Source: a virus. From it: a stretch of 64,000 nt of DNA. The notes below the pieces were generated by a model, which was not told the DNA's origin, made no database searches, and worked only from the letters and a program-made list of their open reading frames with translations. The position numbers and the translations under genes are program-made. This document shows, one piece after another, positions 7,329 through 51,063 of this stretch. Each line of letters starts with the position of its first letter. The first letter of the stretch is position 1. Where the stretch lies: positions 9,456-73,455 of IMG/VR virus record IMGVR_UViG_3300032326_000853; one strand, written 5' to 3'.

Positions 7329-7331
7329 TGT

Positions 7332-30888: not shown

Positions 30889-30903
30889 CTTAAGGAGATC
30901 ACA

Positions 30904-31182: not shown

Positions 31183-31197
31183 TAAAGGAATTTAATT

Positions 31198-31422
31198 ATG
31201 AATGCAAATGTAGAAAACCTTATCAACAAATACTCAGAGATTCTGGACCGAAATCCCTTGGATCAAATGGAAGATACTCAAAGTATCTTGACTAAATTTA
31301 CACAGGCCTTGGCCACAGAACTAGGTGAGATTCTAGTAGCAAGTCCTTACAACGAGGGAGTTCAGATGTACTTTGACGAGAAGATTGCTCGCTACGAAGT
31401 TAAAAAAGCTGTTGGACTATAA
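31198..31422 (+). CDS. Hypothetical small protein
   Basis: AAAGGAATTTAATTATG. Confidence 0.45.
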   Translation: MNANVENLINKYSEILDRNPLDQMEDTQSILTKFTQALATELGEILVASPYNEGVQMYFDEKIARYEVKKAVGL

Positions 31423-31425
31423 AAT

Positions 31426-31600
31426 GATTCGAATAATTTTCTTTTGGTTGATCCTATTTGCCCTGTTCTTTTTTGGCATAAAATTTCTTAGAAGTTTGTC
31501 CGGAAGCGAAGCATGGGCATTGACAAAGCTAGTGACCTATGCTATACTTTGCTCACTGCTAACAACAGCATTCTTAATTTTTATTGTCATTCTTTTTTAA
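31426..31600 (+). CDS. Small two-TM membrane protein
   Basis: MIRIIFFWLILFALFFFGIKF ... AILCSLLTTAFLIFIVILF. Confidence 0.35.
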
Positions 31601-31609
31601 AGGTTCACT

Positions 31610-32404
31610 ATGAAACGCATTGCAACTCTTTCCCTTATTGCGGCCGCTGTCTTGGCCACTGGCTGTACTCGAATCGAAACCGGTGAGGTTGGTGTTCGTG
31701 TTGGATTTGACAAGCAGGTTCAGCCTGGCGAATTGCTACCAGGTTCTTTCAATCAAGTCTTGATTGGTGATGTGCTTACATTCCCTATCAAGGATGTCAA
31801 TGTTGCACTTAACGACATGACTCCCGTGGCCGCAGACAACAGCACAATGAAAGACTTTGATGCTGTGGTTGTTTATAACATCAACCCTCAACAGGTAGCA
31901 GAACTGTACAGTACCAAGAACAAGGCATTCCATGCTGAGATGAAGGGTGACACTTATGTAATGTACAACTACATTGTTCAAAATGCTCGTAATGCTATCT
32001 ACAAGGCCGCACGTAAGTATGAAGCCTTGGACATGGCCGACAAGCGAAGCGAAATGGAAAAGTTTATCCAAGATGAAATCGTTCGCAATTTGGCAGAAGA
32101 AAAACTAGACGGTACTATCATGATCAGTCAAGTCTTGATTCGTAATGTTGTGCCAGCAGATTCAGTTGTTGAAAGTGCCAACGCACTGGTCCGTGCCAAG
32201 AACGAACTCAAGCAAAAGGAAGTTGAAGTTAAAACTGCCGAAGCTGAAAGCCGTCGTATGGCCGCATTGGCAAATAACAGTGCCAGCTCAATTGCGTTTA
32301 TGCAAGCACAGGCCATGTTAAATATCTCAGAAGGTATTAAAGCAGGCAAAGTGCAGACTATTGTTGTTCCCAGTAACTTTAACGCACTCATGATGCCCAA
32401 ATAA
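31610..32404 (+). CDS. SPFH/band-7 domain lipoprotein
   Basis: Lipobox 'VLATGCT'. Band-7-like 'EVGVRVGFDKQVQPGEL ... VKTAEAESRRMAALA' C-terminal Ala/Glu-rich helix. Confidence 0.55.
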   Translation: MKRIATLSLIAAAVLATGCTRIETGEVGVRVGFDKQVQPGELLPGSFNQVLIGDVLTFPIKDVNVALNDMTPVAADNSTMKDFDAVVVYNINPQQVAELYSTKNKAFHAEMKGDTYVMYNYIVQNARNAIYKAARKYEALDMADKRSEMEKFIQDEIVRNLAEEKLDGTIMISQVLIRNVVPADSVVESANALVRAKNELKQKEVEVKTAEAESRRMAALANNSASSIAFMQAQAMLNISEGIKAGKVQTIVVPSNFNALMMPK

Positions 32405-37251: not shown

Positions 37252-37731
37252 ATGAAAAAGATAACTTTAGCCTTAGCAGTGGTATTAAGTGGAGCCCCGA
37301 ATGCCGCTGAATTACAACACAATTTCAATAGTCCAGCCTTTAGTGGTGTGGGCTATTCGTCACATGTTCTAACTTTAAAACAGTTAGAAGATCAACAAAA
37401 AGACAAAAACAGACAGGCAGCAGAAGCATTAAAAGCTGCCGCTGAACGTGAGGCCGCAAATACGCCGCAAGCACGTTTTAAAGCCAGTATGGAAACTCGC
37501 ATTTATAGTGAGTTAGCCAAACGCATTAGCGATAGTCTATTTGGTTCTAGTCCAAATGCACCAACATGTACTCCAACATCAAGTGGTGGCCCATGTGGCG
37601 ATATTGACATTGGCGGTCAAAATATTACTTGGAGAATCCAAGGTACAAATATCATTGTTAGAATTTCAGAAATTGCAAATCCTAACAACTATACAGAATT
37701 AGTAATGCCTTATGCGGCATTTAACATCTAA
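37252..37731 (+). CDS. csgF: CsgF-like curli assembly protein (secreted)
   Basis: Signal peptide MKKITLALAVVLSGAPNAA. 'ELQHNFNSPAFSGVGYSSHVLTLKQLEDQ' parallels E. coli CsgF '[28 protein letters not shown]'. Size 159 aa. Confidence 0.45.
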   Translation: MKKITLALAVVLSGAPNAAELQHNFNSPAFSGVGYSSHVLTLKQLEDQQKDKNRQAAEALKAAAEREAANTPQARFKASMETRIYSELAKRISDSLFGSSPNAPTCTPTSSGGPCGDIDIGGQNITWRIQGTNIIVRISEIANPNNYTELVMPYAAFNI

Positions 37732-37741
37732 GGAAATAAAC

Positions 37742-38623
37742 ATGAAAAAAACAACATTATCCTTAGCAATATCAGCAGTAATTCTACTGTCAGGTTGTGC
37801 CACAGGTTCTGCTATACGTGAAAAAGCCACTGGCAAACAATTTGATGAGCCAGTAGTTGAGCAAAATGCATTTTTAAAAAATCAATCAGACAAGTTACTA
37901 CCACCTTCAACAGGTCCAATTCCAGTTGCTGTTTATGGATTCCAAGACAAGACTGGTCAGCGTAAGAGTATTCCTAACATTGCCAGCTTATCAAGTGCAG
38001 TTACACAAGGTGCCGAAAGCTACTTGATCAAGGCCTTACAAGACGTTGGTCAAGCCCGTTGGTTTACAGTGCTAGAGCGTGTGGGTCTAGACAACTTGAT
38101 CAAAGAGCGTCAAATGATTCGTCAAGCACGTGAGCAATATCAGGGCAAAGATGCAAAGCCATTGAACCCTATGATGTTTGCTGGCATCATTGTCGAAGGC
38201 GGCATTATTGGTTATGACAGCAATACACTAACAGGCGGATCTGGTGTTCGTTTGTTTGGCATTGGTGCAACTACTCAGTATCAAAGCGACACAGTTACAG
38301 TTAACCTACGTACAGTCAGCGTAAGCACAGGCGAAGTGTTAACCAGCGTAACAGTCACTAAAACAGTATTAAGCTATATGGACAAGTTTGGCGTATTAAA
38401 ATTTGTTGACAGCGGTACACAAAGTGTAGAAGCTGAAACAGGCGCCAGCATTAACGAAAGTATCAATAAGGCGGTAAATTTAGCTGTTCAAGCCGCTGTA
38501 GTAAACACAATTCACGAAGGTGCTCGTAAAGGACACTGGAGTTTTAAAGAAGATAAGCCAGCTAACCCAACTGTAGTAGTTCCAGCAGTTGAAGAGGTCA
38601 AGGGAGGCGCGACTGCACAATAA
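37742..38623 (+). CDS. csgG: CsgG curli secretion channel lipoprotein
   Basis: Lipobox LLSGCAT. 'VAVYGFQDKTGQ', 'VTQGAESYLIKALQDVGQARWFTVLERVGLDNLIKERQMIRQA' and 'IIVEGGIIGYDSNTLTGGSGVRLFGIGATTQYQSDTVTVNLRTVSVSTGEVLTSVTVTKTVLSY' match E. coli CsgG blocks closely. Confidence 0.85.
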   Translation: MKKTTLSLAISAVILLSGCATGSAIREKATGKQFDEPVVEQNAFLKNQSDKLLPPSTGPIPVAVYGFQDKTGQRKSIPNIASLSSAVTQGAESYLIKALQDVGQARWFTVLERVGLDNLIKERQMIRQAREQYQGKDAKPLNPMMFAGIIVEGGIIGYDSNTLTGGSGVRLFGIGATTQYQSDTVTVNLRTVSVSTGEVLTSVTVTKTVLSYMDKFGVLKFVDSGTQSVEAETGASINESINKAVNLAVQAAVVNTIHEGARKGHWSFKEDKPANPTVVVPAVEEVKGGATAQ

Positions 38624-38770: not shown

Positions 38771-39568
38771 ATGAATAGAAGTATAACAAACGTTTGCTTG
38801 CTGACAGTGGCAATGATGGCAACCAGCACAGCATGGGCGCAGGCTGCAACAGGACCCAACAAGGTCTACATTGAGCAAATTGGTAACAGCAACACAGTTA
38901 CTATTCAACAAGTAGGTGGTACTAACAACGTCGGTGGCGTTGCATTAAGTACACCAACCAGCGTTAGCGCAAGCGGCATTACTACATTTACACCAGCCGC
39001 CCCAAGTTCTTCAAACTATGCCACTATCACTGGTAGCAGTAACACAGTTGCGCTAACACAAACTGGTAACGGCAACAGTGCTCAGTATGACATGCAAGGC
39101 AACAACAACGTTTATACCAGCACTGTAACTGGTCACAGCAACATGACCAGCTTGACAATTGGTGATTCAAACAACGCAAGTAACTTGCGTAACATAGTAA
39201 CAGAAACAATCACTGGTGATACTAACTTGATTATTCAACAGTTAGTTGGTAGCGATATTACAAGTACCACTGCTGTCACAGGTAATTTAAACCAAATCAC
39301 TAAAGAATTAAAAAGCTCAAACGGTACAAGTGACATTGAAATCACTGGCAACAGCAACGTGTTAAACATTCAACAAGTTGATGCCGCAGGTGCTAACGGT
39401 CACTACTTGAAGCAAGTTATTGCTGGTAGCTTTAACAGCATCACAACTCAACAGCAAGGTACTAATGACACCACTGTTGATATCCGTGCAACAGGAAGCA
39501 ACAATACAATCACTGTAAGAACAAGTAGTAGCAGTATTGTAAATCCTGGTACAGCAATTGCGAGATAA
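38771..39568 (+). CDS. Curlin-repeat (CsgA/CsgB-like) secreted amyloid subunit
   Basis: Signal peptide. Imperfect repeats 'N.V.I.Q.G..N...' e.g. 'SNTVALTQTGNGNSAQYDMQGNNN' vs CsgA 'SIDLTQRGFGNSATLDQWNGKNS'. Confidence 0.6.
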   Translation: MNRSITNVCLLTVAMMATSTAWAQAATGPNKVYIEQIGNSNTVTIQQVGGTNNVGGVALSTPTSVSASGITTFTPAAPSSSNYATITGSSNTVALTQTGNGNSAQYDMQGNNNVYTSTVTGHSNMTSLTIGDSNNASNLRNIVTETITGDTNLIIQQLVGSDITSTTAVTGNLNQITKELKSSNGTSDIEITGNSNVLNIQQVDAAGANGHYLKQVIAGSFNSITTQQQGTNDTTVDIRATGSNNTITVRTSSSSIVNPGTAIAR

Positions 39569-39573: not shown

Positions 39574-40680
39574 ATGTGGCGTGTGCTTTTAGCCACACTT
39601 TTAACGTTAACCAATACTACCATTTTTGCCAGTGGTAGTATTGGCGTTGTGTCCGATAACAAAGGAACACAATGTGAAGTGCAACGTGGCAAGACAAAAA
39701 CCTCAGGCATAAAGGGTGCTAGTATCGAGAGCATGGATACCTACCTAACACAGGCCTGTGCCAGTAATATTACTTTTCGAGACGATACCAAGGTAAAGAT
39801 TACAGAAAATTCAAAGTTGGTCATTGACGACTTTGTGTATGATCCCAAGCAAAGCGATGCAGGTAAATTGGCCATGAAAGTCACAATGGGCACTGTGCGC
39901 TATGCGTCAGGACAGATTGCCAAAAATAATCCACAACAAGTTGCTGTTAAGACACCAACAGCCAACATTGCTGTTCGTGGCACTGACTTTTCAATGACTG
40001 TTGATGAAACAGGGCAAAGCCTTGTTGTTCTACTTCCAAGTTGCAAAGAAGAAAGCGAGCAAAAGAAATACGAGTTAGAAGAAAACCGTTGTAAGGTGGG
40101 ACAGATTGCTGTATCTAATGCCGCTGGTACGGTTGTATTAGATAAGGCATTTGAAGCCACATACATCACCAGCGCAGACATACGACCAACTGTACCAACT
40201 GTTATTAACACAGTTGAAAGCAAAATCAACAACAACCTAATTATTGTGCGCCCACATGAAGTTGAACGTGCTATTCGCGACAACACTGGCCGTACAAAAA
40301 AGGAAGAGCTTGAAGCAGAAATTGAAGCTGAGGCTGCTAGACGTTTAGCGCAACGTGTTCGAGAATCAGGTGAAGAAATTGAACGTGCTAGACTACTGGC
40401 CATGGCTGAGGCTGCTGGTAAAACTGGGTGTAATGCCAGTACAAATATTTGCGTTACATGGGCCAATCCTGACGCACAAGAAATACAAAGTCGTGGTAAA
40501 GGCATAGCATTTAGAAGCAACGAAGATCACTACGCCGAAGTAAAGACACAGGGTTACAGTAGCAACACTGCCATCACAATTGTGCATAACGATGCCAGCG
40601 CCAGCGAGCTAATTGGTGCTGGTGGCGGAGGTGGCAATAGTGTGTATATCAAACAAAACCTTGGAGTACTGCGTAGATGA
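39574..40680 (+). CDS. Secreted FecR-domain protein with C-terminal coiled coil
   Basis: Signal peptide MWRVLLATLLTLTNTTIFA. 'VAVKTPTANIAVRGTDFSMTVDETGQSLVVLLPS' fits the FecR beta-sandwich consensus. Confidence 0.4.
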   Translation: MWRVLLATLLTLTNTTIFASGSIGVVSDNKGTQCEVQRGKTKTSGIKGASIESMDTYLTQACASNITFRDDTKVKITENSKLVIDDFVYDPKQSDAGKLAMKVTMGTVRYASGQIAKNNPQQVAVKTPTANIAVRGTDFSMTVDETGQSLVVLLPSCKEESEQKKYELEENRCKVGQIAVSNAAGTVVLDKAFEATYITSADIRPTVPTVINTVESKINNNLIIVRPHEVERAIRDNTGRTKKEELEAEIEAEAARRLAQRVRESGEEIERARLLAMAEAAGKTGCNASTNICVTWANPDAQEIQSRGKGIAFRSNEDHYAEVKTQGYSSNTAITIVHNDASASELIGAGGGGGNSVYIKQNLGVLRR

Positions 40681-42590
40681 AAAAGTTTTTACTGCCCTTA
40701 TTGTTATTGTGTTCAACTGCATTTGCACAGACAAACTATAACTCTATTGCCACTGCTTACGTTACTACCACTATCAGTCAAAACGTAGTGTTCAATAGTG
40801 CTATGCAACAGGGTGGAACATTTACTTTTAGTGCATTGGCACACAATGGTGGTGGCCGTGCTGGACAAGCAGACACAGCCAACGTAAAGATACAATTCTA
40901 TGCGGCCAACGGTTCGTTGATATCCACAGTAAACTCAAATTACTCTAGTAATTTACCAAACCCAAATCAGGCTCCTGGTAATCCCTGGGCAGATCCCAGT
41001 GTACCTTGGACAGTATTAACAGTTAGTTCAACCAACTGCGGCGGAAGTTGTGCCAACGTTGCGTATGCCACAGTCAGTATGTATGGTATTGATGGCAGTT
41101 ACTGGGCTGGCGACTACGGCCCTTGGTATCGTGCTCCTACACTACAACTTAACGGTGGCGGCAACTTATTATATAACCCAGAGTTCGGTCCTGCTTATGG
41201 ATACAATGCTCAAGGATGGACAACAAACCCAGGCATGGGTGCTTGCCAAGGAGCGTGGGGTGGTAGTAATCCATGTATTGTAAACAGTTCAGGTACACCC
41301 GGTTCAAGTACAGCAGGCCTTGTTGCCAACGAGAACGGTGGTGGTCCCAGCACAACTGGTGGTACTACTAGCGGTCAAGCTGGTGGATACAACAGCACCA
41401 TGAGTGTGACCAATGCAGGGCCCGGAACAGGAACACCACAGACTCCTCCTGGACCTCCACCACCTGCTCCTACAGCAATTTACATGGATAACTCCACAGT
41501 AAAGATTATACGAGCAATACCAACCACTAACAACAGTCCTGGTGGTGAGGGTCCTAACAATGCGTTTGATAATAACCCAAATACAAAATATCTAAACTTT
41601 GATAAGAAGAACGCCGGCGTTACTGTTCAATTAAACACAGGTAAGGTTGTTACAGGATTTACTGTTACAACTGCAAATGACTTCAGTGGTCGCGATCCAA
41701 CAAGTTATAAACTGTATGGCAGTAACGATGGTTCAACATGGACTTTGATTAAACAAGATACCATTTCACTAAGTGAAAATCGTTTTACAACATCATCGAC
41801 TATTAGTGTTGCAAACACAACAGCGTATGCCTATTACTTTATGTTGTTCCCAACAACCAAAGCTGGAGATGGCTGCGGCTTAAACTGCGATAGTATGCAG
41901 GTTGCTGAAATTACATATTACTACGATGCAAATAGTACAACAACATCAACTGCCTCAAGCAACACCATTGTTGACCCTGTAACGGCTGCCAATAACACAC
42001 TATGCTGTGGAGGCAGTGCGGCTGCATTCAATGCTGATACTACCAATGCCGCAAAGGTATCAGCGTTTGTGTCCCGTACTACAAACGACAGTCGTGTTTA
42101 TATAGAACAAATTGGCAACATGAATACTATCACTGTTAACCAGTCTGGTACTAGACAAAACTATGCAGGATATACCGGCAACGGCTCTTCAAATGACATT
42201 GAAATTGTACAAAGTGGTACAGCATCTACGCAAGTAAATTATGCAAACGTTAATGTAACAGGTAACAGTAACACAGTTAATGTCACTCAACAAAGCACAG
42301 GTGGTGCAAAAGGTGCATTTGTTAATATTCAAAACAACAACAATTCTGTCATAATCCAACAAAAAGATTCAGGCAGTCACTGGGCTGATGTTACAGTAAG
42401 CGGCGGTAATAAAAACGTTGACGTGCTTCAACAAGGCAGTGCTAGCCACATGGCTCGTATTAACCTAAGTGGCTTGCCACAGGATTTAAGTTTAACACAA
42501 AGCGGTAGTACACAACAATACTACTCAATCACCAGCAATTGTGCCACAGCAGGCGGTTGCGCCAAGATCACTGTCAATCAAGGACAGTAG
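40677..42590 (+). CDS. Large secreted protein: N-terminal beta domain, F5/8-type C (discoidin) domain, C-terminal curlin repeats
   Basis: Signal peptide MKKFLLPLLLLCSTAFA. Discoidin block 'NAFDNNPNTKYLNF...VTVQLNTGKVVTGFTVTTANDFSGRDPTSYKLYGSNDGSTWTLI'. C-terminal 'RVYIEQIGNMNTITVNQSG...NSNTVNVTQQSTGG...NSVIIQQKDSG' repeats like 38771..39568. Confidence 0.6.
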   Translation: MKKFLLPLLLLCSTAFAQTNYNSIATAYVTTTISQNVVFNSAMQQGGTFTFSALAHNGGGRAGQADTANVKIQFYAANGSLISTVNSNYSSNLPNPNQAPGNPWADPSVPWTVLTVSSTNCGGSCANVAYATVSMYGIDGSYWAGDYGPWYRAPTLQLNGGGNLLYNPEFGPAYGYNAQGWTTNPGMGACQGAWGGSNPCIVNSSGTPGSSTAGLVANENGGGPSTTGGTTSGQAGGYNSTMSVTNAGPGTGTPQTPPGPPPPAPTAIYMDNSTVKIIRAIPTTNNSPGGEGPNNAFDNNPNTKYLNFDKKNAGVTVQLNTGKVVTGFTVTTANDFSGRDPTSYKLYGSNDGSTWTLIKQDTISLSENRFTTSSTISVANTTAYAYYFMLFPTTKAGDGCGLNCDSMQVAEITYYYDANSTTTSTASSNTIVDPVTAANNTLCCGGSAAAFNADTTNAAKVSAFVSRTTNDSRVYIEQIGNMNTITVNQSGTRQNYAGYTGNGSSNDIEIVQSGTASTQVNYANVNVTGNSNTVNVTQQSTGGAKGAFVNIQNNNNSVIIQQKDSGSHWADVTVSGGNKNVDVLQQGSASHMARINLSGLPQDLSLTQSGSTQQYYSITSNCATAGGCAKITVNQGQ

Positions 42591-42617
42591 TTCTAGCTAT
42601 CGTATAAATACGTTACT

Positions 42618-44612
42618 ATGAAATTACGTGACGTTAGCCCCCAAATAACCCTATTAGCTGAGCAACAGCTAGACGAAATTAACATGAGCCCGTCAAGCCT
42701 AAAGCAATTGGCTTCGAGAATCAATGCCCGTGCTGGTATGGAATTTGAAATGATTGTACCGGGCGTAAGTGAGGAAGATGGTGATTTAGAACCCAACTAC
42801 GGCGACGATCAACGCACACGTAGCTTTAGTGATATCGAAGACTTCTTTAACGATGGTGACTACAATAGCCGTAACGATGTTCAACGCTTGATCCAAAAAC
42901 TACAAGAAGCGTATTGGGAATGGGAAATGGAAAAGATCGATAACGATTGGAGCAATGACGGCGAAGATTACATTCGAGACTACATTAACAACAATGAGTG
43001 GAACCAAGACGACAAAATTCGCGAACACTTAGAAGCCATGGGCTTAGATGAAGATGCCATTGAAGCCGCAATTGAAGCTGGCAACAACGCACCAATTTAC
43101 ACAAAGTCTAGCGATCTTAAAGCCGCTCGTGAAGCAGACGAAAACTACAACAATTGGGTAGAAGCAGACCGTGCGGCTGATGATGAACTTGATGAATTAG
43201 TGTCAGAAACATGGAGCGAACAAAGCGGTGTTTATGAAGAAGCATTGGACCAGTATCGTGAAGAAAATGCAGGCACACACGATGAAGATGACTTCTTAGA
43301 AGACAATGGCCTACGTTACATGAGCGATATTTCAAATGAATATGACATCAGCTGGCCTTACTGGAGTAGTCCCGGTGGCGGTGAAGTCAATGCAGAAAGT
43401 GTTGCCGAAGACTTTGCCCAAGCAGTTGGTCGTACAGTAAAAGCCAGTGGCTCTTACCATTCGGGCAGTGTAGCTCGTCCTGACGCCAGTAACTCACACT
43501 ATGTTGTAGAACCTGACGGTAGCTTGGACCCGGACGACAGCAATGACGGTGGCTTAGAGTTTGTAAGCCCAGCATTGCCCATTGGCGAACTGCTAAGTGA
43601 CTTAGACAAAGTTGCCAAGTGGGCCGGCACGTATGGTTGCTACACTAATGAGTCAACTGGCTTGCACATCAACGTCAGCGTTGAAGGTTGGAGCGGTGAC
43701 ATGGGCAAGTTAGATTATGTCAAGTTGGCATTATTAATGGGTGACAACTATATCCTAGACAAGTTTGGTCGTGCTGGCAATACCTATTGCAAAAGTGCAA
43801 TGAACGAAATTAAAAATCGTGTAACACAACGTCCAGAAGATGCAGCCGCACTGCTAGAGAAAATGAAGTCTGGCCTAGACAGTCTTGCAAGTAAAGCAAT
43901 TCACTCGGGCGTTACCAACAAGTACACCAGTATCAATACCAAGAGTGGTTATATTGAATTCCGCTCACCTGGTGGCGACTGGTTAGGCGAGTATGCAGCC
44001 GATCCAGGATCAATTACCAATACCCTGTTGCGATTTGTTGTAGCATTAGATGCCGCAGTAGACGCAGAAAAATACAAACAAGAATACTTGAAAAAGTTGT
44101 ATGCAATCTTACAACCTAAAACTCACAACGACACTATGGCTTACTTTGCACAGTATGCCGCAGGTCAAATGCCCAAGGCCGCACTAAAGAGTTTTATTCG
44201 TCAGGCACAATTAGAGCGTCAAGGTAAGAAACCGCCGCCAGAACAAAAAGAACCAAATTGGTATATCTCAGACAAAAACACTGGACAAATAATTCAGAAG
44301 TACTATGCTGACAATGCCAGTGATGCTTATGAATACCTACAGCGTTGGAAGGCACAAAACGGCGGTGGTGATCACTTACAGTATGGTAAGATAATGCCGG
44401 GACAAGAACCTGGACAAACAGCCACGCAACGAACAGGTGGTAACGAGTGGACTGGACAATGGCTAATTAAAGACGGCAGTGGTCGAGTACTACATAGTTT
44501 TGGCGGTATAGGAAACAGCCAAAGCGATGCAAATCGTTTTGCAACTCGCTGGTTAGCACAACAAGGTTACAGTTATGGAACTGAAATTGAAGTAGTTCCA
44601 GAAATGAGATAA
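42618..44612 (+). CDS. Acidic N-terminal domain fused to an amidoligase-like domain (Amidoligase_2, GS-like fold; tentative)
   Basis: 'GGLEFVSPALPIGEL...GCYTNESTGLHINVSV' resembles the E-x-VSP and tGlHVHv signature blocks of phage amidoligases. N-terminus MKLRDV. Confidence 0.4.
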   Translation: MKLRDVSPQITLLAEQQLDEINMSPSSLKQLASRINARAGMEFEMIVPGVSEEDGDLEPNYGDDQRTRSFSDIEDFFNDGDYNSRNDVQRLIQKLQEAYWEWEMEKIDNDWSNDGEDYIRDYINNNEWNQDDKIREHLEAMGLDEDAIEAAIEAGNNAPIYTKSSDLKAAREADENYNNWVEADRAADDELDELVSETWSEQSGVYEEALDQYREENAGTHDEDDFLEDNGLRYMSDISNEYDISWPYWSSPGGGEVNAESVAEDFAQAVGRTVKASGSYHSGSVARPDASNSHYVVEPDGSLDPDDSNDGGLEFVSPALPIGELLSDLDKVAKWAGTYGCYTNESTGLHINVSVEGWSGDMGKLDYVKLALLMGDNYILDKFGRAGNTYCKSAMNEIKNRVTQRPEDAAALLEKMKSGLDSLASKAIHSGVTNKYTSINTKSGYIEFRSPGGDWLGEYAADPGSITNTLLRFVVALDAAVDAEKYKQEYLKKLYAILQPKTHNDTMAYFAQYAAGQMPKAALKSFIRQAQLERQGKKPPPEQKEPNWYISDKNTGQIIQKYYADNASDAYEYLQRWKAQNGGGDHLQYGKIMPGQEPGQTATQRTGGNEWTGQWLIKDGSGRVLHSFGGIGNSQSDANRFATRWLAQQGYSYGTEIEVVPEMR

Positions 44613-44613
44613 T

Positions 44614-45876
44614 ATGAAAATACAAGATTTAATTGAAGGTTGCAAACACGGAGAATACTATTGCTCCACAGACAAAAAGTGGAAGTGCCGTACTGGTCCT
44701 AAGCAAAGTAGAAAAGTATCCGAAGGTGACTTAAACGAATTTGCACCTGGTGCCGGCGATGGTGATGGCGACGAAGATCCATACCGATATCCCAAGCCAG
44801 AGTCGTATCGTCGTAGTATAGATTTCTTTGGAAAGTTTGAAGCTGATCATTTTGATCGAGAAGATATGAATGACGCCACTGGTGAATTCAAAGGCTATTG
44901 GGGCAAAACACAAATTGCCTATTTCAAGTTTGATAATCCAGCAAAGACTGGCAGTGATGATCCAGGCATGGGCTGGTACTATGAGCCCAACGACATCAGT
45001 GACGACGACAGTGACACTGGTGCAACACCTGCTGTTGATACATCTGCACAACGCAAGCAACAAGAATTAGGCATGATTGATGCGTTTTTAAAGTCAGGGA
45101 AAAAGCCTAATCCGGGCAGTCCAATACATGCCCTAATGAAGAAACATGGTCTGGCAGAAGGCAGTTTAGAAGAAATAGACCGTAGAGGATTCTTAAAAGG
45201 CCTTGGTGCGGCAGTGGCGGGTGCAGCCGGAGTCAGCAACGCCAAAGCGTCTGAAAAGAAGTTTTCAGACTTTATTACCGATCCTGCCGATAAAGAAAAA
45301 TATATAGAGTTAAGAAAAAAAGCCGATCGTATTTTGGCAATATCTATGGTAAATTCATCACTTAAAGTGGCCGCCTATGCCGAAATGGCCAAACTAAAGG
45401 ATTTTAAGAAAGAACTGGCCAAGAAATATAATATTGACATCAATCTTAAAGAAGAAGATATGGCGGAAGCACATCCTAACAGCAAAATCTACGACAAGTG
45501 CTGGGATGGTTATAAGAAAGTCCCGGGCAAAAAGCGTGGTGAAAAAGGCTCATGTGTAGAAGAAACTTATGATGGTGATGAGTTCTTTGAAGCCTACGGT
45601 GTATTATGGTTCAACGAAGATGAGCAGTTAGACGAAGCCGAATACCAAGGACGTAGTGTTCCACTAGGTAAGCCCATGCAAGGCGATGTTAAAAAGTTCA
45701 AAGTATATGTAAAAGATCCTTCAACTGGCAATGTTAAAAAAGTAAACTTTGGCGATCCAGACATGAAGATCAGAAAGTCTAACCCTGCGGCTCGTCGTAG
45801 CTTCCGTGCTAGACACAACTGTGACAACCCAGGTCCAAGAACCAAAGCACGTTACTGGTCCTGCCGTAAGTGGTGA
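44614..45876 (+). CDS. Hypothetical protein with 'LNEFAPGAGDGDGDED' motif and an internal twin-arginine-like signal (RRGFLKGLGAAVAGAAGVSNAKA)
   Basis: Internal Met 'MKKHGLAEGSLEEIDRRGFLKG...' would give a canonical Tat signal peptide. C-terminal Lys-rich region. Confidence 0.45.
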   Translation: MKIQDLIEGCKHGEYYCSTDKKWKCRTGPKQSRKVSEGDLNEFAPGAGDGDGDEDPYRYPKPESYRRSIDFFGKFEADHFDREDMNDATGEFKGYWGKTQIAYFKFDNPAKTGSDDPGMGWYYEPNDISDDDSDTGATPAVDTSAQRKQQELGMIDAFLKSGKKPNPGSPIHALMKKHGLAEGSLEEIDRRGFLKGLGAAVAGAAGVSNAKASEKKFSDFITDPADKEKYIELRKKADRILAISMVNSSLKVAAYAEMAKLKDFKKELAKKYNIDINLKEEDMAEAHPNSKIYDKCWDGYKKVPGKKRGEKGSCVEETYDGDEFFEAYGVLWFNEDEQLDEAEYQGRSVPLGKPMQGDVKKFKVYVKDPSTGNVKKVNFGDPDMKIRKSNPAARRSFRARHNCDNPGPRTKARYWSCRKW

Positions 45877-45895
45877 TCTAATCCATATTATGGAC

Positions 45896-45929
45896 TTGAC
45901 ACAGCCGTTAAAATGTGTTAAATTATAGT
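45896..45929 (+). promoter_or_regulatory. Promoter TTGACA-17-TAAATT(ATAGT) abutting the cyclase start codon
   Basis: ttgaca at 45896-901. ATG at 45930 with no SD, which suggests a short-leader or leaderless transcript. Confidence 0.45.
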
Positions 45930-47966
45930 ATGAAAAACTTTATTCCCGGACCATGGAGTATTGCATGGGTGGCTGTTACAGCCGTTGTACTTGTTGCACT
46001 TAAAATCTCCAACCCCTCACCTGTTGAAAGCATTCAACTAAAAGGCTTTGATGCCTTGCTGGCCACTGACACACCTGTTGATTCCGATCGTGTTGTCATT
46101 GTTGACATTGGCGAGCCCTCCATTGAACGACTAGGGCAGTGGCCTTGGCCTCGCAAGGATCTTGCTCGTGCAATTGATCGTATTCAAGAACTAGGGGCAT
46201 CAGCTATTGTAGTTCCCGTTATCATGAGCGAAGCAGATCGCCTGGGTGGTGATCGAGACTTAGTCAATACACTGAATCATACCAACAGTGTTATTACACA
46301 AGCGCCTACTACACAAAACAAACGTCCCGATGCTGTTCGTCGTGGTGTTGCTGTAATTGGTGGCGACCCGCTTGAGTGGACATTTACTTGGCCCGGTGCG
46401 CTGAGTCCATACAAGCCCTTGGCTGATGCGGCCTCTGGTGTTGGTACCAGTGTAGTTGCTCCTGAGGTAGACGGTGTTGTTCGCCGCATGCCCTTGATTG
46501 TTGCAGTGGGAGATCAAATTTACCCCAGCTTGCCCATTGAAGCACTTCGTGTTGCTACGGGACAAAAGAGTTATCAAGTCAAAATGAGTTCAGCAGGTAT
46601 TGAAAAAGTTCGTATTGCTGGACAACCAGTTGTTACCACAGACGAACATGCTAGAATTTGGCTACGCTGGAACAAGAACTTTGCACGTTACGAGCTATCA
46701 GAGATATCAAAGAAAAAAGTAGACCTTAAGGGCAAAGTTGTAGTACTGGGTCTTGGTGTAGAAGGCTTGGGCAGTATCATTGCCACACCACAAGGCGAAC
46801 GTTGGGCACATGACATCCAAGCACAAACTGTACAAACATTATTAGACGGTGACAGCCCAGTACGTCCTGCATTCGCCCGTAGTGTCGAGCTATTAGCAAT
46901 TGTACTGATAGCGTTTGTACTAATTTTCGTTATGCCACGCTTGCCATTCTGGGCAGTGGGGGCGGCCCTATTTGTCACTGTAGGCGCTGTCATTGGTGGT
47001 AGCTTTTATGCATGGCAACAGTACAGTCAGTTATGGGACATTTACTTGTTGACCTTTGCGGCTGTGGTGTTATATGGACATGCATTGTTTGCCCGCTTTG
47101 TAATTGAATTCAAACAAAAGCAACAGATCAAGAAACAGTTTGGCACATACTTGAGCCCTGCATTGGTAGCCAAGCTACAAAAGAATCCAGAAATGTTACA
47201 GCTGGGCGGTGACGAACGTGAACTATCAATTATGTTTACAGACGTTCGTGGCTTTACTACTATTAGTGAACACTATGGTAAGGACGTACAAGGACTTACC
47301 AAGATCATGAATCGTTACATGACTGCAATGACCAAGAAGATCATTGACAATAACGGCACACTTGACAAGTATATTGGCGATGCACAAATGGCATTCTGGA
47401 ATGCTCCAGTTGACGAAGCACGTCACGCACATATGGCTGTCAAGACAGCACTTGAAATGATGGGAAGTTTAGATGCATTTAATGCGGAAATTACAGCAGA
47501 AGGCGTTCCTCCCTTTGGTATGGGCCTGGGAATTAATACTGCCGCCGTTGTGGTGGGCAATATGGGCAGTGATCAACGGTTTGACTATACTTGTCTTGGC
47601 GACGGTGTTAATTTGGCGAGCCGACTCGAGGGCCAGTCTAAGCCGTATGGTGTCAAGATTGTTTTAGGACAACGTACAGCAGAATTGGTTCGAGACGAAT
47701 ACTCTGTAGTAGAGTTAGACTGTATTGCAGTTAAGGGTAAAACACAAGGCGTTAAGATTTATACGCTAGGTGAAACCAATACAACATTGCATGACACGTA
47801 CTTGACTGCATACTATCGCGGCGACTGGACTAGAGCCATCAAACAGTGCGAAAAGCTAATTGCCTTGGACAATGAACTCAAAGCATATTATGAAGCTATG
47901 TTAGAGCGCATGAACGAAGGGTTACCTCCAAATTGGGATGGTACCTATCGTGCCACAAGTAAATGA
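45930..47966 (+). CDS. Class III adenylate/guanylate cyclase with N-terminal membrane-anchored CHASE2 sensor domain
   Basis: 'LSIMFTDVRGFTTISE', 'KYIGDAQMAFWNAP', 'GLGINTAAVVVGNMGSDQRFDYTCLGDGVNLASRLEG' are cyclase catalytic blocks. N-terminal TM, about 300-aa extracytoplasmic domain, then two TMs (CHASE2 layout). Confidence 0.8.
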   Translation: MKNFIPGPWSIAWVAVTAVVLVALKISNPSPVESIQLKGFDALLATDTPVDSDRVVIVDIGEPSIERLGQWPWPRKDLARAIDRIQELGASAIVVPVIMSEADRLGGDRDLVNTLNHTNSVITQAPTTQNKRPDAVRRGVAVIGGDPLEWTFTWPGALSPYKPLADAASGVGTSVVAPEVDGVVRRMPLIVAVGDQIYPSLPIEALRVATGQKSYQVKMSSAGIEKVRIAGQPVVTTDEHARIWLRWNKNFARYELSEISKKKVDLKGKVVVLGLGVEGLGSIIATPQGERWAHDIQAQTVQTLLDGDSPVRPAFARSVELLAIVLIAFVLIFVMPRLPFWAVGAALFVTVGAVIGGSFYAWQQYSQLWDIYLLTFAAVVLYGHALFARFVIEFKQKQQIKKQFGTYLSPALVAKLQKNPEMLQLGGDERELSIMFTDVRGFTTISEHYGKDVQGLTKIMNRYMTAMTKKIIDNNGTLDKYIGDAQMAFWNAPVDEARHAHMAVKTALEMMGSLDAFNAEITAEGVPPFGMGLGINTAAVVVGNMGSDQRFDYTCLGDGVNLASRLEGQSKPYGVKIVLGQRTAELVRDEYSVVELDCIAVKGKTQGVKIYTLGETNTTLHDTYLTAYYRGDWTRAIKQCEKLIALDNELKAYYEAMLERMNEGLPPNWDGTYRATSK

Positions 47967-48622
47967 CGTATTTTTATCCCTTGGCATTGACAATTGATTC
48001 TGCAGAAAAAGAATCATTTGTCAAGAATCAATTGCCAGGCCTAAAAAACAAGTACAGTGGCACTGGGCATGGACTTGTTAATGTAGGAACTGTTACAGAG
48101 TTGTTCCCCCGCACCATTGCTCAAACTAATCAAGTGGTTGAGTCATTGGGCTTGCGTACCAGGGCAGTTACACTGTTTGCAGGTGATGCAGATTCAACAT
48201 CATATGCTATCCATGCTGACGGTGTTTATTATAATCGCAAGCCTGCATTATTAGAAGCACGACTAAGCTATTACGAATTAGCAGATGCTCCGGGTACATT
48301 GTGTTGGTGGGATCAACAAGACTTGCCCATGACCATGCAGGAATATCCAGCAACAGAATACTCACAGGCCCGCATTAACGTAATGGCCAACTGTGTAGAA
48401 GATCTACAAGCAGGTAGATTACAGTGGCACGACTTACCAGCGCCTGTATTTGAAACCGAGTCCGCAGTGCCCAGTGCTATACTTAGAACTGATCAGCCTC
48501 ATACAGTAATACAAGGTTCGGGATTTAGAATCACCATCAGTTGCCAACTGGTGTTTGCTGATGGCAACCCTCAAGGTGTGTGGCAACACATCGAAAACAA
48601 TATCAATAAATTAGGAGTTTAA
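47963..48622 (+). CDS. Hypothetical protein, possible 2OG/Fe(II) oxygenase-like (HxD...H)
   Basis: 'AIHADG' and 'QPHTVIQGSGFRITIS' are weak. Overlapping ATGA start. Confidence 0.25.
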   Translation: MTYFYPLALTIDSAEKESFVKNQLPGLKNKYSGTGHGLVNVGTVTELFPRTIAQTNQVVESLGLRTRAVTLFAGDADSTSYAIHADGVYYNRKPALLEARLSYYELADAPGTLCWWDQQDLPMTMQEYPATEYSQARINVMANCVEDLQAGRLQWHDLPAPVFETESAVPSAILRTDQPHTVIQGSGFRITISCQLVFADGNPQGVWQHIENNINKLGV

Positions 48623-48623
48623 A

Positions 48624-49034
48624 GTGTTATATTTTGCATATGGTATGAATACCAATAGTAGCGTTATGAGCAAGACCAGCCGCAGACTAGGTCCAGCAAC
48701 CTTATTGGGTTATAAATGGGAAATGCTACAGTTTGCCAATGTGTTTGAATCTAAAGGCTGCACTGCCGTAGGCATATTATGGGACATTGATGAGACGGAG
48801 TTGCAGGACTTGGATTATCGCGAAGGCTATCCTTCATTTTACGATCGCGTTAGTGCCACAGTGGAACACCAAGGTGAACAAAAGAAAGCCTGGGTATACT
48901 ACATGACTCCGCACTATAGAACCAAGCTGTCTGATTGTGAGCCAAGCCCACATTATGCTCAAATGGTCACTGAGGGCTTTGCTCAGGATGGTTTAAGTGT
49001 TGCTAATCTTACTGCACACAAGAGTTTGATATAA
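48624..49034 (+). CDS. Gamma-glutamyl cyclotransferase-like (GGCT/AIG2 fold) protein
   Basis: N-terminal 'LYFAYGMNT' (YFAYGSNL hallmark), 'GILWDIDETELQDLDYREG', 'AWVYY'. Confidence 0.6.
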   Translation: MLYFAYGMNTNSSVMSKTSRRLGPATLLGYKWEMLQFANVFESKGCTAVGILWDIDETELQDLDYREGYPSFYDRVSATVEHQGEQKKAWVYYMTPHYRTKLSDCEPSPHYAQMVTEGFAQDGLSVANLTAHKSLI

Positions 49035-49690
49035 AGCCAGCCTATATCAAATTCAAACCAACGACGACTTAGTCGAGGGTTAGCAGGATCCAAATGATGG
49101 TTATTATGAAGGCATTCGCCACCAATAATAATACCCCAAGGACTAATGTTTCTACTGTTATCTTTAGTTTGGCCATTACGATATCCCCACCAGTGACCCA
49201 AGCCGTTGATGACTCCAGCGGCCCAGAATGGTATCCATATCATTTGAATACCCCATATTAATAAGCCCGGCAAGCCAAACACCACCAGGTCTATCAATAA
49301 CATAAGCATAATACCCAAGCGGCTGTGTCGAGTATATAAATTTTGTTCAATCCAGTCGTTTGGAGTACCAACGCCGTATTGTGCAACCATCTCTGCATCT
49401 TTACTGGCACTGTGATATAGTCCTGCTCCACGAAGTAGCACACGTTTTAATCCGTATACCTGTGGACTGTGTGGGTCTCCGGGTTGTTCTGTAAATCTAT
49501 GATGCTTGCGGTGTATGGCTACCCATTGCCGAGTGACCATGCCTGTTGTTAACCATAACCAAAAGCGCATGAAGTGTGCCACAACAGGATTAAATGTGAC
49601 GCCTCTGTGCGCTTGACTGCGGTGTAGATAAAGTGTAACACACGCAATGGTAATGTGTGTTAGTATAAGAGTTGCTATTAATGTTGTCAT
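48983..49690 (-). CDS. Delta-9 acyl-lipid/acyl-CoA fatty acid desaturase
   Basis: Three His boxes: 'LHRSQAH', 'WVAIHRKHHRFTEQPGDPHSP' (cf. DesC 'WVGLHRIHHKFSDTPHDPH'), 'HNNHHLDP'. Confidence 0.75.
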   Translation of the reverse strand: MTTLIATLILTHITIACVTLYLHRSQAHRGVTFNPVVAHFMRFWLWLTTGMVTRQWVAIHRKHHRFTEQPGDPHSPQVYGLKRVLLRGAGLYHSASKDAEMVAQYGVGTPNDWIEQNLYTRHSRLGIMLMLLIDLVVFGLPGLLIWGIQMIWIPFWAAGVINGLGHWWGYRNGQTKDNSRNISPWGIIIGGECLHNNHHLDPANPRLSRRWFEFDIGWLYIKLLCAVRLATLKPS

Positions 49691-49705: not shown

Positions 49706-50044
49706 TTAACTTTTACTATTCTTAGCAGGTTTATCAAGGTTAACGGCATCGCGAAACTTTTCATCTGCTTCGCGGTCTACTTTTTGCTGTTCTACCACAC
49801 GCTCACCATCAATGATCTTGCCACGTAAATGTAGTACAACATCTACCTTTTGATTCAAACGAATCAAATCGTTGTCTAACATACGCACACGATCAATCAA
49901 GGCAATAAGTGTAGTAGATGCGGCACCTAATACTGGTTTAATATCTTGTGTTGCCCATTGCCATACATAGAATATCAAGTATCCCATGCCGCCAGCGGCC
50001 ACAATCGGGAAGCCGTATTTGTTAATTAAATTCGCTATATCCAT
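49706..50044 (-). CDS. Small membrane protein (paralog of 50782..51063)
   Basis: Shared 'GFPI.AA...GY..F' TM plus 'AL(I)D.RV..M..D.IR' helix. Confidence 0.45.
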   Translation of the reverse strand: MDIANLINKYGFPIVAAGGMGYLIFYVWQWATQDIKPVLGAASTTLIALIDRVRMLDNDLIRLNQKVDVVLHLRGKIIDGERVVEQQKVDREADEKFRDAVNLDKPAKNSKS

Positions 50045-50600: not shown

Positions 50601-50782
50601 TTTGGATTATTATTCTTTTTTTGTTCGGCCAGCATGCGAAACCATTCTTTTTTCATTTCCACATTGTGGCGAAGATGTGTCAAGCGGTCATCCCCGTCAT
50701 CTTTGATGTAAACGTACATCAGTACAGCAAATACAGCTATACACAATACAACATACAAATTAATTGTTAATGTGTATTCCAT
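50570..50782 (-). CDS. Small membrane protein
   Basis: TM 'LYVVLCIAVFAVLMYVYI'. Confidence 0.35.
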   Translation of the reverse strand: MEYTLTINLYVVLCIAVFAVLMYVYIKDDGDDRLTHLRHNVEMKKEWFRMLAEQKKNNNPKWPAGWPGKN

Positions 50783-51063
50783 TAGTCACGTCTCGCATCG
50801 TTTTTGCCGTCGGCCCGTGCAATACGACTGGTGTCGGGCTTTAGACCTAGTGCATTTGAAACAATAGTGTCAATGCGTATAACGTCATGGTTCATTGTTT
50901 TAACACGGTTGTCAAGTGCTTCAATGATACCTTTTAAACCATTGACACTGGATGTAACACCTGCTAAAATAAACTTCAACGTTAGAAATACAAAGTACCC
51001 TGCGGCTATTGCGGCTGCAATTGGAAAGCCAACTTCGGCTACTAATTTGAAAAACTCACCCAT
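50782..51063 (-). CDS. Small membrane protein (paralog of 49706..50044)
   Basis: See paralog. Confidence 0.45.
   Translation of the reverse strand: MGEFFKLVAEVGFPIAAAIAAGYFVFLTLKFILAGVTSSVNGLKGIIEALDNRVKTMNHDVIRIDTIVSNALGLKPDTSRIARADGKNDARRD

Follow-up and report, generated by a model that had tools for sequence, protein, structure and literature searches.

A 6.4 kb gene run in an uncultured giant phage encodes three real enzymes, a glutamine-synthetase-like amidoligase, a membrane adenylate cyclase, and a gamma-glutamyl cyclotransferase (GGCT), yet their union in a single signaling system is not supported. The run, which lies in the 64 kb stretch of DNA analyzed here (the window), is best explained as several gene sets brought together on one strand, with no function in common: the end of a viral curli module, a late-gene cassette whose amidoligase would be packaged in the virion, and leaderless cytoplasmic enzymes. 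We hold this full explanation, packaging included, with slightly better than even confidence. The gene and domain calls behind it are confirmed well above chance at the coordinates listed in Table 1. An earlier sequence-only reading had instead tentatively joined the amidoligase, the cyclase, the GGCT, and the gene preceding the GGCT into one signal-coupled system for peptide or amide-bond modification, an interpretation that is partly supported as a whole.

Table 1. Features of the gene run and its surroundings (positions in the window).
Feature	Coordinates	Strand	Remarks
CsgF-like curli secretion component	37252..37731	+	Pfam CsgF E=1.5e-6; N-terminal signal-like sequence; first gene of viral T8SS module
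CsgG-like outer-membrane curli channel lipoprotein	37712..38623	+	Pfam CsgG E=8.5e-53; lipobox-like LLSGC
Curlin-repeat (CsgA/B-like) secreted subunit	38771..39568	+	Weak Curlin_rpt match E=0.002; signal peptide; syntenic with pelagiphage curlin genes
FecR-domain periplasmic protein	39574..40680	+	Pfam FecR E=4e-10; phrog_37870 E=2e-71; signal peptide
Second curlin-like secreted protein (curlin2) with F5/8 type C (discoidin) domain	40677..42590	+	Pfam F5_F8_type_C E=9e-13; signal peptide
T4-type late-promoter motif TATAAATA	42603..42610	+	8 nt upstream of amidoligase start codon
Glutamine-synthetase-like amidoligase (Amidoligase_2)	42618..44612	+	Pfam PF12224
Amidoligase N-terminal 20-residue leader MKLRDVSPQITLLAEQQLDE, candidate capsid-targeting propeptide	42618..42677	+	L-x-E at end
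Mosaic protein p420, 420 aa, no enzymatic domain	44614..45876	+	Starts 1 nt after amidoligase stop
Sigma-70-like promoter match (TTGACA-17-TAAATT with TG), cyclase gene start	45896..45924	+	Consensus match only
Membrane CHASE2-sensor class III (K/T type) adenylate cyclase, 683 aa	45915..47966	+	Pfam; phrog_35576 E=4e-232; terminal gene of curli/FecR module
2OG/Fe(II)-oxygenase-like (JmjC/cupin fold) cytoplasmic protein p219, 219 aa	47963..48622	+	Start overlaps cyclase stop by 4 nt
Gamma-glutamyl cyclotransferase (GGCT/GGACT fold), 136 aa, cytoplasmic, leaderless	48624..49034	+	Pfam GGACT E=4e-14; phrog_2520
Small membrane/coiled-coil protein p112, paralog of p93	49706..50044	-	Companion of curli-cyclase module
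Small single-pass membrane protein p93	50782..51063	-	Most conserved curli-cyclase neighbor; ATAAATA motif precedes gene

The cyclase closes a viral curli module

The cyclase bears the CHASE2 and catalytic domains that the sequence-only reading assigned to it (CHASE2 E=2e-41, Guanylate_cyc E=1e-19), and the metal-binding aspartate pair on which that assignment was said to hinge is present (D443/D489), as are K485/T559, N566, and R570 in the alignment. Hydropathy predicts a transmembrane segment at residues 9-34, a periplasmic CHASE2 domain, and a transmembrane cluster at residues 316-397. The protein shares 41-42% identity with its counterparts in the cultured phages HTVC008M and Melnitz, and it is the last gene of a viral module ordered CsgF-CsgG-curlin-FecR-curlin2-cyclase. 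A curli (T8SS)-FecR-cyclase module has already been described in pelagiphages (HTVC008M, Melnitz, and HTVC023P-type; Wittmers et al., 2022, PMC9599517), and its gene set and order are those of the window, with the CsgF-like gene in the matching position in HTVC008M and Melnitz. Unlike the pelagiphage module, the module here is split just before the cyclase by a 3.3 kb late-gene cassette (amidoligase and p420), a discoidin domain has been added to its second curlin-like protein, and its carrier is a giant phage with relatives on contigs of ~290 kb. The C-terminal 200 residues of that second curlin-like protein are 59% identical to the Curlin_rpt protein directly preceding the cyclase in a related locus, L091.

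The FecR-domain protein is likely the partner of the CHASE2 sensor, an adjacency known as a pairing in bacteria (PMC5192318). Homologs of p93 and p112 flank the module in ~64 of the 82 cyclase loci, and in HTVC008M and Melnitz p112 homologs immediately precede CsgF; the passages of PMC9599517 on the module make no mention of these near-constant neighbors. Signal peptides or transmembrane segments occur in every curli-module protein and in none of the amidoligase, p420, p219, and the GGCT. The sigma-70-like match at the cyclase gene start belongs to a class of matches whose overall count is not above that of shuffled controls.

Gene distributions separate the cyclase from the amidoligase and GGCT

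If the amidoligase, the cyclase, p219, and the GGCT were one system, cAMP made by the cyclase in response to an extracytoplasmic cue would control tagging. The run genes are co-directional and close-set (gaps of 1-38 nt or overlaps of 4 nt), an arrangement that resembles a single operon owing solely to the dense packing of phage genes. The order amidoligase...cyclase-p219-GGCT is also kept in relatives that have all of these genes, and the amidoligase occupies the same curli-module site in two cyclase sub-clades, although the two copies are not closest relatives. This fixed place in every relative that combines amidoligase and module could still reflect a functional tie to the module rather than an insertion hot spot. 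Even so, the distributions of the genes largely refute a single system, and we regard it as hardly credible. Neither amidoligase nor GGCT is present in 76 of the 82 related cyclase loci, and the module in HTVC008M and Melnitz follows the same order, again with neither gene. Conversely, in ~70 of the 80 amidoligase loci fetched (from 247 IMG/VR loci encoding relatives), neither a cyclase nor a GGCT lies within 10 kb; for the family, about 80% of loci have neither that near.

Comparisons of single loci separate the same genes. L091 has identical synteny minus the amidoligase, p420, and the GGCT, and L098, separated from L097 at the amidoligase site by a clean indel of 2.77 kb, has the cyclase without amidoligase or GGCT. 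The reverse is seen in L016, which keeps the amidoligase, p420, p219, and the GGCT while CsgF, CsgG, curlin, FecR, curlin2, the cyclase, p112, and p93 are all gone, a configuration that further opposes cAMP coupling. Different promoter-like motifs precede the amidoligase and the cyclase, and a domain scan of the window found no cAMP-binding domain. The amidotransferase of the amidoligase, GGCT, and amidotransferase trio invoked earlier is likewise absent: no class II glutamine amidotransferase was found among the scanned window ORFs of at least 150 aa, which comprised all such ORFs but for three minus-strand ones, two of these nested within larger genes.

A phage-only family of amidoligases

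As the sequence-only reading proposed, the first gene of the run encodes an Amidoligase_2 protein, and with its catalytic-type residues conserved it looks like an intact and active ATP-dependent carboxylate-amine ligase. Strand beta1 carries an ExE motif (residues 37-47) and is followed by a helical insert of roughly 160 residues (85-241), the catalytic core (259-481), and two small alpha/beta repeats (548-591 and 614-661); there is no signal peptide or transmembrane segment. Identity to glutamine synthetase, gamma-glutamyl-amine synthetases, and PafA/Dop, of the carboxylate-amine ligase superfamily, is only 10-16%, and the amidoligase lacks an N-terminal beta-grasp domain. The family is phage-only and independent of the cyclase, with more than 2,238 homologous clusters and only three loci, in two MAGs, among 185,579 species genomes.

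Iyer et al. (2009) reportedly described phage Amidoligase_2 systems, with examples in phiEco32, LUZ24-like, and OM43 phages, that combine a glutamine-synthetase-like amidoligase with a class II glutamine amidotransferase and sometimes a GGCT. The window resembles these systems in its PF12224 domain, conserved catalytic-type residues, and nearby co-varying GGCT gene. Unlike them, it has no amidotransferase, most family members have no nearby GGCT, and the helical insert, C-terminal repeats, and leader go with a protein of double the usual size.

A probable late-gene cassette with a candidate capsid-targeting leader

The motif TATAAATA occurs once in the 64 kb window. The shorter ATAAATA is depleted there (5 copies versus 13.9±3.5 expected), all five copies sit 5-30 nt upstream of a start codon, and TAAATA is conserved at the same spacing upstream of the amidoligase in relatives. 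Judged by this short motif, the amidoligase seems to be transcribed late and separately, with a promoter motif of its own, and together with p420 it would make up a distinct late-gene cassette that was inserted after the second curlin gene and before the cyclase. The p420 gene, which the sequence-only reading left undescribed, encodes a CTS-like N-terminus (MKIQDLIEG), a small Cys-rich module, and a conserved C-terminal module (phrog_7595), with an internal Tat-signal-like stretch at residues 187-210; its modules are found separately in other loci.

The amidoligase leader, MKLRDVSPQITLLAEQQLDE, is part of a family-wide pattern. About 49 of 60 aligned family members start with M-[KR]-x-x-[DE]-hydrophobic, most of the others having N-terminal extensions, and L18 and E20 do not vary in a 12-sequence alignment and are kept in 90% or more of the 60. 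The structural model gives pLDDT below 50 for residues 1-21. The leader resembles those of the T4 internal proteins IPII/IPIII (MKTYQEFIAE) and IPI (MKTFKEF...ITE), and the T4 prohead protease gp21 cuts after L/I-x-E (PMC9026906). As with the T4 internal proteins and Alt, a short M-K/R-x-x-acidic-hydrophobic leader ending in L/I-x-E is accompanied by a late-promoter motif and a homolog in the virion, and it is common to unrelated, fast-evolving proteins clustered in the genome: 14.1% of gene starts in amidoligase loci show the pattern, compared with 0.7% of those in cyclase-only loci and 0.4% of internal methionines. In contrast to T4, the leader is one residue shorter in most carriers (15-24 residues on the amidoligase itself), and the putative cargo is a 75 kDa ATP-dependent amidoligase. 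We know of no packaged phage protein with such an activity.

The virion homolog is gp196 of Agrobacterium phage Atu_ph07, which has a leader of the same kind and was detected by mass spectrometry in purified virions (14 unique peptides, 30% coverage). Its gene lies two genes from a T4-like portal gene, and Atu_ph07 has a gp21-like protease. Identity between gp196 and the window amidoligase is only 32% over the core domain, the C-terminal repeats are missing in gp196, and only two of four leader-like proteins in a 49-gene region of Atu_ph07 are confirmed virion proteins. No gp21-type prohead protease was seen within the 64 kb window because the window is only part of a genome that reaches ~290 kb in relatives.

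A role in superinfection exclusion or lysis tuning was the original suggestion for phage amidoligases, and several family members do keep company with GH19 peptidoglycan hydrolases: one of them, P0103, carries LysM and GH19 domains as a fusion, a GH19 gene adjoins the amidoligase or lies within ~3.5 kb of it in L016 and in some 14 loci that are otherwise unrelated, and the window GH19 protein at 33232 bears the same N-terminal leader. It is nevertheless unlikely that the amidoligase works with these hydrolases by modifying the cell wall or its precursors. The enzyme has no signal peptide, ATP is not available in the periplasm, and the shared leader is a simpler reason for the GH19 clustering, in that both may be packaged proteins.

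The GGCT co-varies with the amidoligase

The identity proposed earlier for the last gene stands, with E67 aligning to catalytic E98 of human GGCT, although its motif reads LYFAYGMN and not the YFAYGSN originally quoted. Among cyclase loci, the GGCT is present in exactly those that carry the amidoligase and absent from sister phages, and its indel site is separate from that of the amidoligase. This co-variation, which amounts to only two or three evolutionary events, suggests a ligase/remover pair. Joint presence and absence at two insertion sites lends some support to a functional link between amidoligase and GGCT. The GGCT cannot be an obligate partner, since about 80% of family loci have no GGCT gene within 10 kb of the amidoligase.

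Such a pair could also act unpackaged in the cytoplasm of the infected cell, metabolizing small molecules, for example in a gamma-glutamyl cycle with polyamines or amino acids as substrates, in which the ligase makes the amide and the GGCT frees the amine and 5-oxoproline; the conserved N-terminus would then be only a common translation-start or recombination feature of late genes. This is possible but doubtful, given that a homolog is physically present in Atu_ph07 virions and that the leader both ends in an invariant L-x-E, like prohead-protease substrates, and recurs on unrelated proteins clustered in the same loci. The lack of a nearby GGCT gene in most family members and the occurrence of the decarboxylase also in loci without the amidoligase count against it as well.

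The weak HxD...H signature noted in p219 is real, with H84-x-D86...H180 invariant in 21 homologs, and the structural model (pLDDT 92.6) has JmjC/2OG oxygenases, NO66 and HygX among them, as its matches. The gene is present in relatives with or without amidoligase and GGCT (the latter including L091 and L098) and also in L016, which has no cyclase.

Implications for infection

The amidoligase, found in a large group of uncultured giant phages, is probably a packaged and injected enzyme. Its leader would direct entry into the prohead in the manner of the T4 internal proteins, a prohead protease would remove that leader after L-x-E, and the mature enzyme would be injected together with the DNA. 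The GGCT and p219 would be made in the cytoplasm from the incoming genome, while the cyclase would most likely sense the state of the envelope apparatus through CHASE2 and FecR and make cytoplasmic cAMP. At the onset of infection the amidoligase would use host ATP to join an amine and a carboxylate, probably in a gamma-glutamyl-type amide, on a host or phage target, and the GGCT may remove or recycle that amide as 5-oxoproline.

Identity and distribution of the amidoligase

Profile searches upheld the three domain calls of the sequence-only reading, which had named an amidoligase, a CHASE2-sensor cyclase and a gamma-glutamyl cyclotransferase-like (GGCT) protein in one run of genes. Pfam matches aa 257-452 of the first to Amidoligase_2 (PF12224; 42.7 bits against a curated cut-off of 22, E=8e-11), the second to CHASE2 (2e-41) and a class III cyclase domain (1e-19), and the third to GGACT/AIG2 (4e-14, 53.5 bits against a cut-off of 22.8). 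The GGCT motif LYFAYGMN aligns with LYFAYGSN of human GGCT, and E67 with the human catalytic E98. The amidoligase has the glutamine-synthetase-type catalytic fold, and across 60 homologues its residues E42-x-E44, E298, E314, H350 and E447-x-R449 are invariant. These acidic, histidine and arginine residues are the putative counterparts of the metal, ATP and substrate residues of the glutamine synthetase active site. The protein is predicted to be an intact amide-forming enzyme.

More than 2,238 clusters belong to the amidoligase family at E≤0.001 among the candidates scored, and most of them, at 45-86% identity, are conserved from end to end. The family is essentially confined to viruses: across 185,579 species, each represented by one genome, a scan recovered three loci, in two metagenome-assembled genomes. 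No full-length member was found in cultured phages; the giant phages Atu_ph07 and RsoM2USA come nearest, with partial matches. The C-terminus carries an alpha/beta repeat of about 50 residues, present in one to four copies depending on the homologue (aa 548-591 and 614-661 in the window protein), with the consensus FTGxWxIxD..G..L..FGGIGNxQSDANRxAxxW...VVPEM and no match to a known family. One family member, P0103, is fused with LysM and GH19 domains, and a GH19 gene lies beside or near the amidoligase in about 14 otherwise unrelated loci (for example L008, L033, L050 and L087).

Positions of the features discussed, in window coordinates unless another locus is named
Feature	Position	Strand	Remark
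Accessory genes	5808-8189		host-like
Gene at 14620	14620		leader opening
Accessory genes	16383-21592		host-like
LuxR/GerE-type regulator	23667-24398		helix-turn-helix
LuxR/GerE-type regulator	24391-25101		helix-turn-helix
Accessory genes	29824-32404		host-like
GH19 hydrolase	33232		leader opening
ATAAATA	42604		
Amidoligase	42618-44612		
p420	44614-45876		leader opening
CHASE2 cyclase	45915-47966		
p219	47963-48622		219 aa
GGCT	48624-49034		
Accessory gene(s)	48983-49690	-	host-like
p112	49706-50044	-	paralogous to p93
p93	50782-51063	-	paralogous to p112
ATAAATA	51096	-	
ATAAATA	51165		
Gene at 51177	51177		leader opening
ATAAATA	57991		
Gene at 58019	58019		leader opening
ATAAATA	60211		
S-adenosylmethionine decarboxylase	L097, 7250-7600	-	
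S-adenosylmethionine decarboxylase	L099, 7053-7406	-	

Leader, late-promoter motif and virion proteome

The N-termini of the amidoligase family are poorly conserved in detail and share a common design, M-[K/R]-x-x-[D/E] and then a hydrophobic residue, with an L-x-E motif 15-24 residues in, directly before the conserved INMSP motif. This L-x-E is invariant in a 12-sequence alignment and kept in at least 90% of 60 members, and disorder is predicted for residues 1-21. Across 67 non-redundant amidoligase loci the leader pattern stands at the start of 219 of 1,558 genes (14.1%), compared with 0.7% in cyclase-only loci and 0.4% at internal methionines, an enrichment of about 20-fold at gene starts in amidoligase loci. 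The carriers, taken from window genes and loci L003-L090, are mutually unrelated, a GH19 hydrolase included, and their consensus is M-R/K-A/L-x-E-F/L-I/L/V-x-E. Within the window, five proteins besides the amidoligase open in this way.

In phage T4, capsid-targeting propeptides of 10-19 residues steer otherwise unrelated proteins into the prohead and are removed by the gp21 protease, which cuts after L/I-x-E (PMC9026906; PMC3012670). The leader of the amidoligase family closely resembles, as a matter of similarity only, these targeting sequences of the T4 internal proteins, which read MKTYQEFIAE (IPII and IPIII) and MKTFKEFTSTTTPVSTITE (IPI) in the T4 genome. It looks like a T4-type capsid-targeting tag that uncultured giant phages would put to wide use.

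The sequence upstream of the gene agrees with this reading of the leader. The T4 late-promoter consensus, TATAAATA, has a single copy in the 64 kb window, 8 nt 5' of the amidoligase start codon. The shorter ATAAATA is depleted (five copies, where 13.9±3.5 would be expected); each copy has a start codon 5-30 nt downstream, and three precede leader-bearing genes. TAAATA is conserved at equal spacing upstream of the amidoligase in relatives, and at the cyclase start a sigma-70-like match stands in place of the late-type motif. This distribution would fit a T4-type late-promoter core.

The partial homologue in Atu_ph07 brings in a virion proteome. Its gp196 (500 aa) matches the amidoligase core (BLASTP E=1e-32), shares the ExE strand and begins with a comparable leader, MRWQDISSKKLTE and then LKMNSSTL; its gene lies two genes away from the T4-like portal. 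In purified Atu_ph07 virions gp196 was detected by 14 unique peptides at 30.2% coverage (PMC6102473 Supplementary Table S5), and the phage encodes a gp21-like prohead protease, gp204 (PMC6102473 Supplementary Tables S3, S5). Within the 49-gene stretch of Atu_ph07 examined, the small leader-bearing gp199 is a second virion protein, and two further matches to the leader pattern look like chance. The RsoM2USA homologue is not among the 10 gel bands covered by the virion analysis of that phage, which is too shallow to inform. We consider, with slightly better than even confidence, that the amidoligase is best explained as an enzyme expressed late and probably packaged in the capsid and injected, one member of a very large giant-phage family.

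The cyclase and the curli module

The cyclase was assigned to its partners by comparing 80 viral loci around cyclase relatives, 80 around amidoligase relatives and further loci from exact-protein look-ups, each scored for homologues of every neighborhood gene. Neither the amidoligase nor the GGCT occurs in 76 of 82 cyclase loci, almost all of which keep the curli genes and FecR. Conversely, about 70 of 80 amidoligase loci are without the cyclase, the curli genes or the GGCT within 10 kb, and an iterative profile search of the same intervals found no divergent GGCT. Two loci bring out this division. L091, a giant phage with a cyclase 72% identical to that of the window, has the exact window gene order minus the amidoligase, p420 and the GGCT. 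L016 retains the amidoligase (69% identical), p420, p219 and the GGCT, and is without CsgF, CsgG, curlin, FecR, the second curlin, the cyclase, p112 and p93. This joint loss of curli genes, cyclase and p93/p112 from three separate positions, with the intervening enzymes left in place, argues strongly that the cyclase functions together with the curli module rather than with the amidoligase and GGCT. The signal-coupled (cAMP) amide-bond modification system proposed in the sequence-only reading is therefore not supported, given the 76 cyclase loci without both enzymes and the presence of both without a cyclase in L016.

The cyclase matches phrog_35576 over its full length (E=4e-232) and is 41-42% identical to homologues in the cultured marine myophages HTVC008M and Melnitz. 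Hydropathy places a transmembrane segment at residues 9-34, a periplasmic CHASE2 domain, a transmembrane cluster at 316-397 and then the cytoplasmic cyclase domain. From end to end, that domain can be aligned with bacterial adenylate cyclases of solved structure, CyaB (3r5g) and 6fht. In this alignment the transition-state residues N566/R570 are in place, as is the metal-binding aspartate pair D443/D489, whose absence the sequence-only reading had named as a refuting result. The substrate-specifying positions K485 and T559 carry the residues of Pseudomonas aeruginosa CyaB, a pair predicted to specify ATP. PADLOC matches the cyclase to Pycsar cyclases at the domain level alone and returned nothing for the remaining genes.

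Upstream of the amidoligase lie genes for CsgF, CsgG, a curlin-repeat protein, a FecR-domain protein and a secreted discoidin-domain protein, and every curli-module protein of the window has a signal peptide or membrane segments. HTVC008M and Melnitz have the contiguous order CsgF-CsgG-curlin-FecR-second curlin-like-cyclase. The window follows the order of the viral T8SS-FecR-cyclase module, but the amidoligase/p420 cassette interrupts it. A published study describes and surveys this viral module in pelagiphages, FecR and cyclase included (PMC9599517), and a gene for a periplasmic FecR-domain protein adjoining a CHASE2 sensor is a known bacterial arrangement (PMC5192318). The cyclase part of the window is this already known viral curli-FecR-cyclase module and, being published, is ordinary.

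In the paralogous p112 and p93, two small membrane proteins, a hydrophobic 'GFPI' segment at the N-terminus leads into a coiled-coil-like stretch. In about 64 of the 82 cyclase loci they are found with the curli-FecR-cyclase module, before CsgF in some and after the cyclase in others, and p93 is the most conserved protein of the neighborhood (63% identity to its Melnitz homologue versus 42% for the cyclase). The two may be unrecognized module members or holin-like proteins. About 13 kb upstream of the curli module are two adjacent LuxR/GerE-type helix-turn-helix regulators, the type to which the bacterial curli regulator CsgD belongs.

The GGCT and its possible link to the amidoligase

The GGCT lies 4 kb downstream of the amidoligase, and the two co-vary in the curli-bearing clade, yet about 80% of loci of the amidoligase family have no GGCT within 10 kb. 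Among curli-module giant phages it occurs in exactly the amidoligase-positive loci and is missing from the rest. On the cyclase tree one clade is positive throughout, and the only other positives are the pair L022/L099, which is surrounded by negatives. The amidoligase of this pair groups with copies from curli-less phages, a hint that the gene entered this site a second time, independently. L097 and its sister L098 differ at the DNA level by two clean indels. One, of 2.77 kb, holds the amidoligase and an S-adenosylmethionine decarboxylase; the other, of about 0.4 kb, holds the GGCT and is separated from the first by the cyclase and p219. Two or three such correlated events at separate sites suggest a ligase/remover pair, and are suggestive rather than proof. 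Butirosin biosynthesis follows this pairing logic in its BtrJ/BtrG step, and gamma-glutamyl amines are the substrates of GGACT enzymes. Only tentatively, and well short of an even chance, do we regard the GGCT as a lineage-specific partner of the amidoligase.

Phage trios of amidoligase, GGCT and amidotransferase had been invoked for this region, and two of the three members are present. The third was not found, as no GATase family matched the window ORFs of at least 150 aa, a set that covered all but three minus-strand ORFs, two of them embedded in larger genes. In this the window differs from the amidoligase system of Iyer et al. (2009), in which a class II (N-terminal Cys) amidotransferase is adjacent.

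The decarboxylase of the 2.77 kb insert (PF02675, E=6e-20) is seen in one sub-lineage, in L097 and L099. A polyamine link through this gene was rejected: the window does not have it, and some loci carry it without the amidoligase. As general ideas for the amidoligase, a polyamine role and a cell-wall role are rivals of lower probability.

p219, p420 and the wider neighborhood

The gene between the cyclase and the GGCT, p219, has no Pfam, NCBIfam or PHROG match and belongs to a narrow family of 46 homologous clusters. Its predicted model is confident (pLDDT 92.6) and resembles NO66, HygX and JMJD7 at Foldseek probability 1.0 and E of about 1e-5, with TM-scores of only 0.4-0.5. A weak HxD...H signature had been read in this protein, and it proves to be made of invariant residues (H84-x-D86 and H180, alongside R189-x-T191). 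On the model, p219 is a predicted JmjC/2OG oxygenase-like protein, a double-stranded beta-helix with an HxD/E...H iron triad. It is found with or without the amidoligase, the GGCT or the cyclase, so it cannot be assigned to a partner.

Directly after the amidoligase, p420 is a mosaic of a leader, a small, rare Cys-rich N-terminal module (17 matches), a variable middle and a C-terminal module seen in other phages, and its modules recur elsewhere in differing combinations. A stretch resembling a twin-arginine (Tat) signal, with an A-x-A site (RRGFLKGLGAAVAGAAGVSNAKA), lies at aa 187-210, mid-protein rather than N-terminal; it may be a trace of two genes that fused, or mark an internal start. Single-linkage clustering of amidoligase neighbors gave one chain of 209 mosaic proteins with common small modules and no clean conserved partner; in the other giant-phage group, the commonest neighbor genes had no Pfam match.

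The region is a densely packed plus-strand gene run with close relatives on viral contigs of up to about 295 kb. The window is phage, as judged from its surrounding genes: the curli module is common to cultured phages, several genes match PHROG families, and tail-fiber genes stand at the window's start. These features, together with the viral relatives in IMG/VR, led us to reject a bacterial origin. Host-like accessory genes are abundant, and encode two TctC-like and one DctP solute-binding proteins, a TauD dioxygenase, a subtilase, a nitroreductase, a papain-like peptidase, an SPFH protein, a DesA-family fatty-acid desaturase (the one name contributed by NCBIfam), three radical-SAM proteins and two GH19 hydrolases. 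Over 36.5-51.4 kb, generic scans for promoters and terminators found no more candidates than in shuffled controls and so do not define operons, and a DNA-level search against cultured phages returned nothing useful.

Implications

The amidoligase bears the marks of a T4-style injected protein, namely a leader, a protease site and a late-promoter motif, and has a homologue in virions. Extended to the whole phage-only family of more than 2,200 clusters, a bolder hypothesis is that these are capsid-packaged amidoligases delivered with the DNA, which would carry out ATP-dependent amide ligation on a target in the host or the phage at the very onset of infection. The GGCT would serve as remover in some lineages, and the T4-like tag on about one in seven nearby genes would load a diverse, fast-evolving head arsenal. 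We think it rather unlikely that this full picture holds. Among the large unannotated proteins of uncultured giant phages from fresh and marine waters, the amidoligase family is one of the commonest. T4 Alt and other injected enzymes reprogram the host ahead of any phage gene expression, and an injected ATP-dependent ligase, if true, would be a new activity among them. The leader motif offers a simple sequence rule for predicting head-packed proteins of giant phages, one that can be checked in virion proteomes.
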